From a virus (Duplodnaviria > Heunggongvirae > Uroviricota > Caudoviricetes), in the IMG/VR virus record IMGVR_UViG_2609459797_000002: DNA of 14,736 nucleotides; one strand, written 5' to 3'. Positions 5,684-6,649 of this stretch are shown piece after piece. Below the pieces are notes generated by a model that saw nothing but the letters and a program-made list of their open reading frames with translations, was not told the origin of the DNA and did no database searches. The position numbers and the translations under genes were made by a program. How positions within the stretch are numbered: the stretch's first letter is position 1; every line of letters begins with the position of its first letter.

Positions 5684-6649
5684 TTATCCTCTGAAACCAG
5701 GCGGAATTTCTGTATCCGGTTCAGAAATATGATTAACACAACGCTGTACAGGTGAACGTCCCAGGCGGATGACCAGTTCGTCCCATTTTTCGCGGAGCTT
5801 TGACGGGCTCATGATGTTTTTTACCCAGAATGGATCTCGCTGAACCCGACCAAACATTTCGCAAATTTGTCTGTGGCTTCTGCCATCCAGCATCCGCATT
5901 GTGCGCACGTCATTGGCCCAGGCAGTCCAGTTAGGCTCTTTTGGTCGCATGATCTCGCCATCATCACTGGCTGCCTGTTCGTAGAGACCCACGATCCGCC
6001 CCCAGATCCACTGCGCACACGCCAAATCCTCCCTGCTACCCCACTGGCGTTTTTTCGCACTAAACACAACCGCGTCGGAGTTCCGGGTTAAAGAATCCTG
6101 TTCAGTCGTCTGCGGGTCCGGTTGCGAAGCTTCCGGACGAAAAGTGTTTTTATTCTCTGTAGTAATCTCTGTTGTATTCTCTGTAAGATCATCAGGCCAT
6201 TTTGACCCGATGACATTGGGTCGTTTTGAACCAATGGAGCGTTTCATTTTGACCTCTTCCATCGTGTCATTTTGACCTGATGGAGCGGCGCATTTTGAAC
6301 CGATGGATTCGCTCAATTTGCCACCATCTAAAAGCTCGCTCCCATAGTTGATCGTGTAGAAATTGGTCATATCGCGCTTTGATTTATTGAGCTTTTCACA
6401 ACGCAAAAGCCCCAGCGTTTTCAGACTTGCAAACGCGCGCTTTAACGTTGACTCTGACCAGAATGGGAACTGTTCCAGCCATTGTTCCGTTGTGTTATAA
6501 ATCCAGCGAACACCATCACATTCCATGCCGGAGTTGGTATCTCTCAACCAGTAGTGCAGTTGTTGCAAAACAATGGCTTCGTTTAAGCCAATTTTCATTG
6601 CCAGCTGCGTGTTTATAACCAGTGGGCGTTCAGCAAAAAGAAGGCTCAT
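5684..6649 (-). CDS. phage replication initiation protein with DnaT-like (primosomal protein I) C-terminal domain
   Basis: Track ORF 5684..6703 starts at TTG; I chose the internal ATG at 6649 (MSLLFAERPLV...). The N-terminal part resembles phage replisome-organiser HTH domains. The C-terminus ...VNHISEPDTEIPPGFRG closely matches the E. coli DnaT C-terminus (...[13 protein letters not shown]) as I recall it. Confidence 0.8.
   Translation of the reverse strand: MSLLFAERPLVINTQLAMKIGLNEAIVLQQLHYWLRDTNSGMECDGVRWIYNTTEQWLEQFPFWSESTLKRAFASLKTLGLLRCEKLNKSKRDMTNFYTINYGSELLDGGKLSESIGSKCAAPSGQNDTMEEVKMKRSIGSKRPNVIGSKWPDDLTENTTEITTENKNTFRPEASQPDPQTTEQDSLTRNSDAVVFSAKKRQWGSREDLACAQWIWGRIVGLYEQAASDDGEIMRPKEPNWTAWANDVRTMRMLDGRSHRQICEMFGRVQRDPFWVKNIMSPSKLREKWDELVIRLGRSPVQRCVNHISEPDTEIPPGFRG

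Follow-up and report, generated by a model that had tools for sequence, protein, structure and literature searches.

Background

The replication origin of phage lambda (ori-lambda) has its iterons and unwinding element inside gene O, and the mosaic boundaries of hybrid phages classically placed the site of interaction with the P protein in the C-terminal part of the O protein; many plasmid initiators bind the helicase DnaB directly. The contact of lambda O with P is structurally unresolved (PMC12661323). In Escherichia coli, dnaT directly precedes dnaC in one operon, and cryo-electron microscopy of the complete preprimosome placed PriB on the acidic inter-domain linker of DnaT (Asp66 and Asp70) and the globular C-terminal domain of DnaT on PriA, and found that this domain forms a filament on single-stranded DNA (ssDNA); how DnaB-DnaC is recruited was described as unknown in the same report (Ducos et al. 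2026, PMC13377028). The combination of an O-like N-terminus with a DnaT C-terminal motif was already noted in 2017 for DopC of Cellvibrionales/Oceanospirillales, in which an HTH_36 N-terminus is followed by a 'DnaT Cter motif' detected by HHpred (Brezellec et al. 2017, PMC5509034). In the present study, we analysed the replication initiator gene encoded in a stretch of 14,736 nucleotides of the virus record IMGVR_UViG_2609459797_000002 (IMG/VR; Caudoviricetes), the whole of which is hereafter called the window. A preliminary description of this gene, made from the sequence alone, had taken its product for a phage replication initiator fused to a DnaT-like C-terminal domain, which would recruit the host PriA/PriB restart primosome. 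Our results indicate that the DnaT likeness is a short disordered tail on a lambda-O-type protein and that, in the sampled loci, such tails accompany DnaC-type and not lambda-P-type helicase loaders, and we lean slightly towards the explanation that a lambda-O-type initiator with an internal origin would use this tail to dock DnaC-type loaders.

Results and discussion

The DnaT likeness is confined to a tail of about 20 residues

The last residues of the initiator (QRCVNHISEPDTEIPPGFRG) aligned without gaps with residues 160-179 of E. coli DnaT, with 14/20 identical residues and 18/20 positives (pairwise BLASTP, E = 9e-8; the DnaT query was identical in sequence to PDB chain 9zbt_D). In the NCBIfam DnaT profile (PRK02854), residues 302-321 were aligned with positions 160-179 (E = 0.0058), the score for the whole protein being under the curated cut-off (16.3 versus 201 bits), and a phmmer search against the PDB matched residues 301-321 with the DnaT chains 2ru8, 6aep and 9zbt (E = 0.013-0.042). 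These three comparisons bear out the statement of the preliminary description that the C-terminus mirrors that of DnaT. Among 108 DnaT orthologues, the tail positions R161, D162, N164, S167, P169, D170, I173, P174, G176, F177, R178 and G179 were invariant or conserved in at least 97%, and the prophage tail retains 11 of these 12 positions, the exception being the replacement of D162 by C. The motif shared by the two proteins is RD-x-N-x-x-S-x-PD-x-x-IP-x-GFRG at the very C-terminus. The tail was disordered in both models computed with AlphaFold2 (AF2), where its predicted local distance difference test (pLDDT) values were ~30-57 per 10-residue block.

No similarity to DnaT was detected in the rest of the protein. 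Pfam PF17948, the three-helix ssDNA-binding domain of DnaT (DnaT 84-153), did not match the initiator at E < 0.1, an hhalign comparison of the alignment of DnaT 84-158 with that of the O-type C-terminal domain gave a probability of 0.2%, and no DnaT structure was among the fold matches of the O-type C-terminal domain. An hmmsearch with the filters off listed gp46 of Salmonella phage SPN1S (E = 8e-35) and other initiators at the level of noise (E >= 0.2), and the window protein was not listed. The N-terminal oligomerisation domain and the acidic linker of DnaT were not detected either, as the PRK02854 profile and BLASTP aligned residues 302-321 only; the initiator's own linker is acidic, yet it has no detectable similarity to the acidic linker of DnaT. 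Unlike DnaT itself, the window protein thus lacks both the N-terminal and the three-helix domain of DnaT, a DnaT linker is not detectable in it, and its likeness to DnaT is a disordered tail of ~20 residues rather than a DnaT-like domain. The suggestion that this segment mirrors the PriB-binding part of DnaT is contradicted by the structure, in which PriB sits on the acidic linker (PMC13377028). In the pairwise alignment, the likeness was limited to residues outside the PriB-interaction segment, and the PriB inference fails because the similarity is so confined.

The body is a lambda-O-family initiator with a putative internal origin

The PHROG 391 profile ('replication initiation O-like') covered residues 17-321 with positions 11-298 of its 298 positions (E = 5.6e-91), and a Pfam search of the 321-residue initiator gave no model that matched any part of it. 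Residues ~196-300 belong to the lambda-O C-terminal domain family. A phmmer search with residues 196-321 against 1.84 billion proteins gave 2958 cluster representatives at E <= 1e-3, including proteins with Phage_rep_O or HTH_36 N-terminal domains and the representative P0383, which by its sequence is probably lambda O. The window protein's C-terminal domain is ~40-50% identical to those of O-type relatives. It spanned residues 206-296 in the AF2 model of the whole protein, and in an AF2 model of residues 196-321, built with a deeper alignment, most of the helical bundle had pLDDT > 90 and the tail ~50.

The N-terminal domain showed a helix/beta-hairpin pattern with pLDDT ~70-90 in the AF2 model of the whole protein. 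It matched PHROGs 6493, 11233 and 428, which are annotated 'replication initiation' or 'DnaD-like' (PHROG 6493, 'DnaD-like helicase loader', residues 2-102, E = 1.5e-34), and an hhalign comparison with the N-terminal domains of HTH_36-bearing sister initiators gave a probability of 93.6% (E = 2e-7), the Pfam HTH_36 threshold itself not being reached. The best Foldseek matches were the RepA N-domain 4pql and the Rep-DNA complex 5kbj (probability 1.0, with weak E-values of 0.02-0.12). These PHROG, hhalign and Foldseek results agree with the earlier view that the N-terminal half is an initiator-type DNA-binding domain. Unlike lambda O, the window protein has an HTH_36-like N-terminal domain and not the Pfam domain Phage_rep_O (PF04492), which was absent from its N-terminus (hhalign to Phage_rep_O-bearing relatives, 0.4%); members of the PHROG 391 family are modular at this end.

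The DNA encoding the disordered linker, between the two domains, contains both the iteron-like units and the AT-rich repeats listed in Table 1. Three of the six 23-bp units have palindromic CATC...GATG ends (inverted repeat), the GC content over 6140-6199 (0.33) is the lowest within the initiator gene, and the repeated peptides of the SIGSK type in the linker are translated iterons. From their sequence, the iterons and the AT-rich block form a putative replication origin with the layout of ori-lambda. The window protein resembles lambda O in its DNA-binding N-terminal domain, its flexible linker with iterons and AT-rich DNA and its homologous helical C-terminal domain, and both genes come after cro- and cII-like genes in a rightward early operon. 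The gene is very probably that of a lambda-O-family initiator carrying an internal origin. Unlike lambda O, the window initiator is not followed by a P gene, the DUF977 gene being found there instead, and its tail (...IPPGFRG) is different from that of lambda (...LDLTNTDWIYGVDL).

Note that two representatives among the C-domain matches (P0254 and P0259) join an HTH_36/O-type initiator to a C-terminal piece of a lambda tail tube and a Big_2 domain, and are most likely assembly or gene-calling chimeras. The 90%-identity cluster of P0242 mixes initiators of 323 residues and DnaC-like 'ATP-binding proteins' of 246 residues; some database entries may fuse or bridge adjacent initiator and DnaC-like genes.

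The same tail ends unrelated phage initiators

Many other phage initiators also end in this motif, and the tail alone matched three further PHROGs (18526, 3729 and 1701) at their C-termini. A tblastn search of 50,697 phage records with the DnaT tail gave matches in 49 records, which fall in replication-protein genes; the exceptions are two Salmonella contigs, where the match is DnaT itself, and a few records in which the annotation is missing or uninformative. At least four unrelated initiator bodies have only the tail in common, namely the O-C-domain, YdaU/Gifsy, POCJ13/Tritos and SPN1S DnaT-domain types. POCJ13 gp16 and Tritos gp36, the bodies of which are unrelated to that of the window protein, have tails 100% identical to the window tail over 19-20 residues (19 in the case of POCJ13). 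In the lineages without a loader gene, the core D-x-x-[IVT]P-x-GFRG is kept and the flanking residues diverge.

A DnaC-like gene comes directly after the tail-bearing initiator in Rac (YdaU, then YdaV), vB_EcoS-666R9, Gifsy-2, SPN3UB and POCJ13, in the same way that dnaT precedes dnaC in E. coli. The tail is present and no loader is annotated in SPN1S, BUCT711, Tritos, HannyBb, mEp460 and SfII. A lambda P gene was found in none of the tail-bearing GenBank phage records that were opened. The modules of Rac (YdaU-YdaV), Gifsy-2 and SPN3UB (O-DnaC) and POCJ13 (gp16-gp17) share with the window the DnaT-like initiator tail and the DUF977/LygF gene downstream, and some of them also have a DicA/DicC-type immunity region. 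They are unlike the window in having their own DnaC homologue (with DUF1627/YdaW) between the initiator and LygF, and in initiator bodies unrelated to the O-type C-terminal domain. SPN1S gp46 (locus L236, 1748-2563) is, like the window protein, a phage initiator with the same tail and no adjacent loader gene; unlike the window protein, it has a genuine DnaT domain before the tail (Pfam PF17948, E = 3.9e-18), and it is of the very type to which the preliminary description had assigned the window protein.

Initiator tails sort with the family of the neighbouring loader

We compared the ends of initiators with the loader genes beside them in loci drawn from IMG/VR, where the open reading frames (ORFs) upstream of DnaC homologues were checked in three frames. 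The scan seeded with lambda gave near-identical copies of lambda, and diverse loci were supplied by the scan for which P-family proteins served as seeds. Over 241 residues, the phage DnaC homologue shares 49% identity with E. coli DnaC, and it matches PDB chain 6qel with E = 1.9e-79. All 79 loci seeded with it had an ORF ending in ...GF[RK][GS], with its stop 3-15 nucleotides before the loader, and 48 of the initiators in these 79 loci are outside the O-C-domain family. The GFRG tail was found in none of 78 loci with P-family loaders (33-100% identity), in which, with few exceptions, the upstream ORF has an end of another type, called here HWN or NTDW.

Within the O-C-domain family, the termini are D-x-x-[IV]P-x-GFRG, the lambda-like L-D-[FW]-x-N-T-D-W-x-x-G (NTDW), H-W-N-x-x-E-x-W-x-x-x-[LI] (HWN), and others. 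Pfam Phage_lambda_P was encoded downstream in 71/71 loci with the NTDW tail and in 12/12 with the HWN tail, whereas among the 131 loci with the DnaT-like tail (39 unique sequences) a DnaC homologue was downstream in 12, no loader was found in 119, and lambda P was downstream in 0. In the loci upstream of P-family loaders (L318-L397), the initiator nearly always ends in HWN[ST]xE[AGS]Wxxx[LI] or [LI]D[FW]xNTDWxxG, and these ends occur next to P-family loaders on O-C-domain and non-O-C-domain bodies alike. By analogy, the HWN and NTDW tails may be P-docking peptides of lambda-type initiators.

The window module has no loader gene and a mosaic boundary at the tail

The absence of a helicase-loader gene from the operon, which the preliminary description had reported, was confirmed in the window and in the phages compared with it. 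Neither the window nor HannyBb gave a match in a tblastn search with lambda P and DnaC homologues. The whole-genome annotation of HannyBb (in which many ORFs are 'hypothetical') and the region of mEp460 that was examined contained no gene for a helicase or a loader, and the region of SfII that was examined contained none for a loader. A hypothetical ORF of HannyBb (228 residues) belongs to PHROG 3217, the function of which is not annotated, and is absent from the window. DUF977/LygF as a stand-in loader was ruled out, as Rac, 666R9 and POCJ13 have this gene alongside a DnaC homologue. We also looked for a hidden loader or helicase in relatives that lack a loader gene; the domains that Pfam gave for their larger ORFs downstream were those of methyltransferases, ParB-HTH, KilA-N, PerC, kinase, HNH and similar proteins, and none was replication-related.

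DNA homology to Tritos (90%) starts exactly at nucleotide 5746, the first tail codon, and runs into the DUF977 gene (window 5238-5746; locus L399, 2501-3009). In POCJ13, the identical tail is followed by dnaC-like and DUF1627 genes and then by the DUF977 gene (locus L398, 2500-2560 and 4119-4508). As judged from these alignments, the mosaic of POCJ13 and the window is consistent with a deletion or an insertion of a loader cassette. The window module looks like a module of the Rac/POCJ13 type minus dnaC-like and ydaW, and loss here or gain there are both possible.

How the tail may act

In the mechanism that we propose, the initiator would use its N-terminal winged-helix domain to bind the six 23-bp iterons within its own coding sequence, the AT-rich block beside them would melt, and the disordered tail of ~20 residues after the O-type C-terminal domain would dock a DnaC-type helicase loader. 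Since phages of this lineage do not encode a loader themselves, the origin-bound initiator would capture host DnaB-DnaC, directly and by mimicry of DnaT, so that PriA and PriB would not be needed. Such a loader-docking reading of the tails would follow, by analogy, the logic of the hybrid phages of lambda O. The chances that the tail docks DnaC or DnaB-DnaC seem to us evenly balanced on the evidence of the sequences. Tentatively, with somewhat less than even confidence, we suggest that the GFRG tail is a portable short linear motif for DnaC-type loaders, which in DnaT, either in place of the N-terminal domain or together with it, would be the missing link through which the PriA-PriB-DnaT preprimosome recruits DnaB-DnaC. 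It is likewise possible, and we would not go so far as to call it probable, that through this motif unrelated initiator families bring their own DnaC homologue or host DnaB-DnaC to the origin.

Several points weigh against this mechanism. We infer the contact between tail and DnaC from gene neighbourhood alone. Each locus scan took the 80 best matches, and the lineages are therefore not independent; the tail-bearing clusters that were looked up are all from Enterobacterales, which possess both DnaC and PriA/PriB systems, and host range thus does not discriminate between the two models. The DNA encoding the tail lies next to the loader gene, with a mosaic boundary exactly at the start of the tail, and co-inheritance as a single recombination unit therefore explains part of the association. 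Ducos et al. (2026) favoured DnaT's N-terminal domain, and not the tail, as the recruiter of DnaB-DnaC (PMC13377028). The 'DnaT Cter motif' of DopC is paired with the P-like DopE, which would be a counter-example if the motif includes the tail (PMC5509034). DopC is like the window protein in combining an O-like HTH_36 N-terminus with a DnaT C-terminal motif; it is unlike it in being the product of a domesticated chromosomal gene, without iterons or an O-type C-terminal domain, and in its pairing with a lambda-P-like loader. Finally, residues 154-179 of DnaT add to ssDNA affinity and cooperativity, as the affinity of DnaT 84-179 for dT30 is ~2.7-fold that of DnaT 84-153 and its Hill coefficient is also higher (Liu et al. 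2014, PMC4132743).

The effect on ssDNA binding, together with the disorder of the tail, would fit a tail that is an auxiliary ssDNA-binding or oligomerisation arm, which would help the initiator (and DnaT) to coat melted DNA and would not bind any particular protein. We regard this as unlikely. The core S-x-PD-x-x-IP-x-GFRG is rich in proline and glycine, and its net charge is acidic or neutral, which is atypical for DNA-binding tails, the basic residues K160 and R161 within DnaT 154-163 could explain the effect on affinity, and a generic arm is not expected to sort strictly by loader family.

The same sorting bears on the proposal of the preliminary description that the tail brings the PriA/PriB/DnaT restart primosome of the host to the origin of the phage, where this primosome would then load DnaB. 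This proposal has no account of why the tail stands before every sampled phage DnaC homologue and in no P-type module, a co-occurrence that points to DnaC or DnaB-DnaC instead, and PriB binds the acidic linker of DnaT and PriA its globular C-terminal domain, neither of which the initiator has. Recruitment of PriA/PriB thus appears quite unlikely, although the tail is common to DnaT, a component of the PriA-PriB pathway, and the phage has no loader gene. Residues 155-179 of DnaT are not discussed by Ducos et al. (PMC13377028), which leaves room for a contact with PriA; the DnaT chains of the mature preprimosome complex were deposited as residues 1-154.

Phages without a loader must somehow reach host DnaB, and the tail could contact the helicase itself, in the manner of the DnaA N-terminal domain or of the plasmid Rep proteins, many of which are generally known to bind DnaB directly. 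However, DnaB is also the target in P-type phages, and the tail was found in 0/78 P-type modules; it tracks DnaC homologues specifically, so that we give direct binding of DnaB little credence. It is very improbable that the tail is mainly a recombination linker or the relic of a deleted dnaC-like gene with little function in the window phage, as the exact start of the Tritos homology and the gene order of POCJ13 might suggest, since the peptide is kept across the four or more unrelated bodies and host DnaT, since its core is invariant amid diverging flanks in loader-less lineages, and since isolated phages such as HannyBb, and mEp460, retain an intact tail. Compared with DnaT, which depends on fork structure, the window initiator is presumably origin-specific.

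Gene, operon and prophage setting

The initiator gene belongs to the rightward early operon of an E. coli lambdoid prophage of the Qin/mEp460 type. The features of the window are summarized in Table 1.

Table 1. Features of the initiator gene and of its surroundings in the window
Feature	Coordinates	Strand	Remarks
IS3-family OrfA-like HTH_Tnp_1 protein gene	848-1156	minus	insertion sequence, downstream of early operon
Two-ORF transposase (HTH_28/HTH_32 N-part and rve_3 integrase core)	1860-3201	minus	downstream of early operon
sok antitoxin RNA	3275-3446	minus	Rfam RF01794, 99.8 bits
S-adenosylmethionine (SAM)-dependent methyltransferase ORF	4868-5224	minus	118-residue fragment; decayed gene after DUF977/LygF
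DUF977/LygF ('Ren-like exclusion') gene	5221-5643	minus	downstream of initiator; Pfam DUF977, E = 5e-29; PHROG 142
Replication initiator coding sequence	5684-6649	minus	ATG 6649, stop codon 5684-5686; 321 residues
DnaT-like C-terminal tail, QRCVNHISEPDTEIPPGFRG	5687-5746	minus	residues 302-321
Lambda-O-type helical C-terminal domain	5762-6043	minus	residues ~203-296
Disordered inter-domain linker	6047-6322	minus	residues ~110-201, pLDDT < 50 (AF2)
AT-rich block, three 12-bp direct repeats (TATTCTCTGTAG)	6151-6186		adjoins iterons; candidate DNA-unwinding element
Six tandem 23-bp iteron-like units	6190-6328		core CATTTTGA(A/C)C; repeat families at 23-bp spacing
Winged-helix (HTH_36-like) N-terminal domain, putative origin-binding	6350-6613	minus	residues ~13-100
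YdaT-family/CII-like gene	6630-7151	minus	Pfam YdaT_toxin; PHROG 163 CII-like; 20-nucleotide overlap with initiator start
DicC, Cro-like regulator	7135-7365	minus	first gene of rightward early operon; NCBIfam DicC, E = 2.7e-46
DicA repressor	7449-7856	plus	divergent; NCBIfam DicA, E = 3e-70
DicF antisense small RNA	8898-8949	plus	Rfam RF00039, 76.7 bits
835-residue protein	9557-12064	plus	sole recognisable domain C-terminal Rv2179c-like 3'-5' exonuclease, residues 654-825; first 650 residues acidic, without family match; occupies recE position of prophage

A longer ORF started by TTG extends to 6703 and overlaps the upstream ydaT-like gene; we favour the ATG start because the homologues also have 321 residues. 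Several E. coli chromosomes matched a region of 3.1 kb including the initiator gene with 100% identity, and 327 of 5426 complete genomes contained 80% or more of this region. Phages PhiR42_1, HannyBb and mEp460 encode the initiator protein with 97.8-99.7% identity, and their copies are labelled 'DNA replication protein O', 'replication initiation O-like protein' or 'Primosomal protein I', and the name given by the NCBI annotation pipeline (PGAP) is 'phage replication protein O' or 'hypothetical protein'. The gene is therefore common and already filed as an O-like initiator, with identical or near-identical copies in hundreds of E. coli genomes as well as in sequenced phages. The DnaT similarity had also been picked up previously, as the RAST-style annotation 'Primosomal protein I', a name of DnaT, exists.

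In an E. coli chromosome that is near-identical over window positions 4800-7900 (a rounded 100.0%, with a score slightly below that of the exact matches), PGAP marks the methyltransferase gene as frameshifted with an internal stop, and there are two neighbouring pseudogenes. The DicF RNA confirms an immunity-left region of the Qin/dicB type, and the sok RNA implies a toxin-antitoxin locus of the hok/sok type (hokD region) in the right arm of the prophage. Given the insertion-sequence genes beyond the early operon, the prophage copy in the window is probably disrupted.

Implications

In the literature on YdaU/YdaV, on DnaT domestication and on the lambda O-P interface, the coverage of which was incomplete, we found no earlier rule connecting tails and loaders; nor did the searchable literature, with the same limit of coverage, contain the portable-tail nature of the DnaT similarity or its implication for DnaT. 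The rule that emerges is that the last 15-20 residues of an initiator sort by the loader family encoded next door, and that DnaT bears the DnaC-type version. If docking by this tail is true, it would bear on how the restart preprimosome engages DnaB-DnaC, and a phage with a GFRG-tailed initiator but without a dnaC homologue would rely on the DnaB-DnaC of the host and bypass PriA and PriB. A peptide of 20 residues with invariant positions makes both the handover from the preprimosome and the contact of lambda O with P directly testable. As a rule for annotation, the tail of the initiator would predict the helicase-loading route of a temperate phage and, where a loader gene is absent, its dependence on host DnaC.

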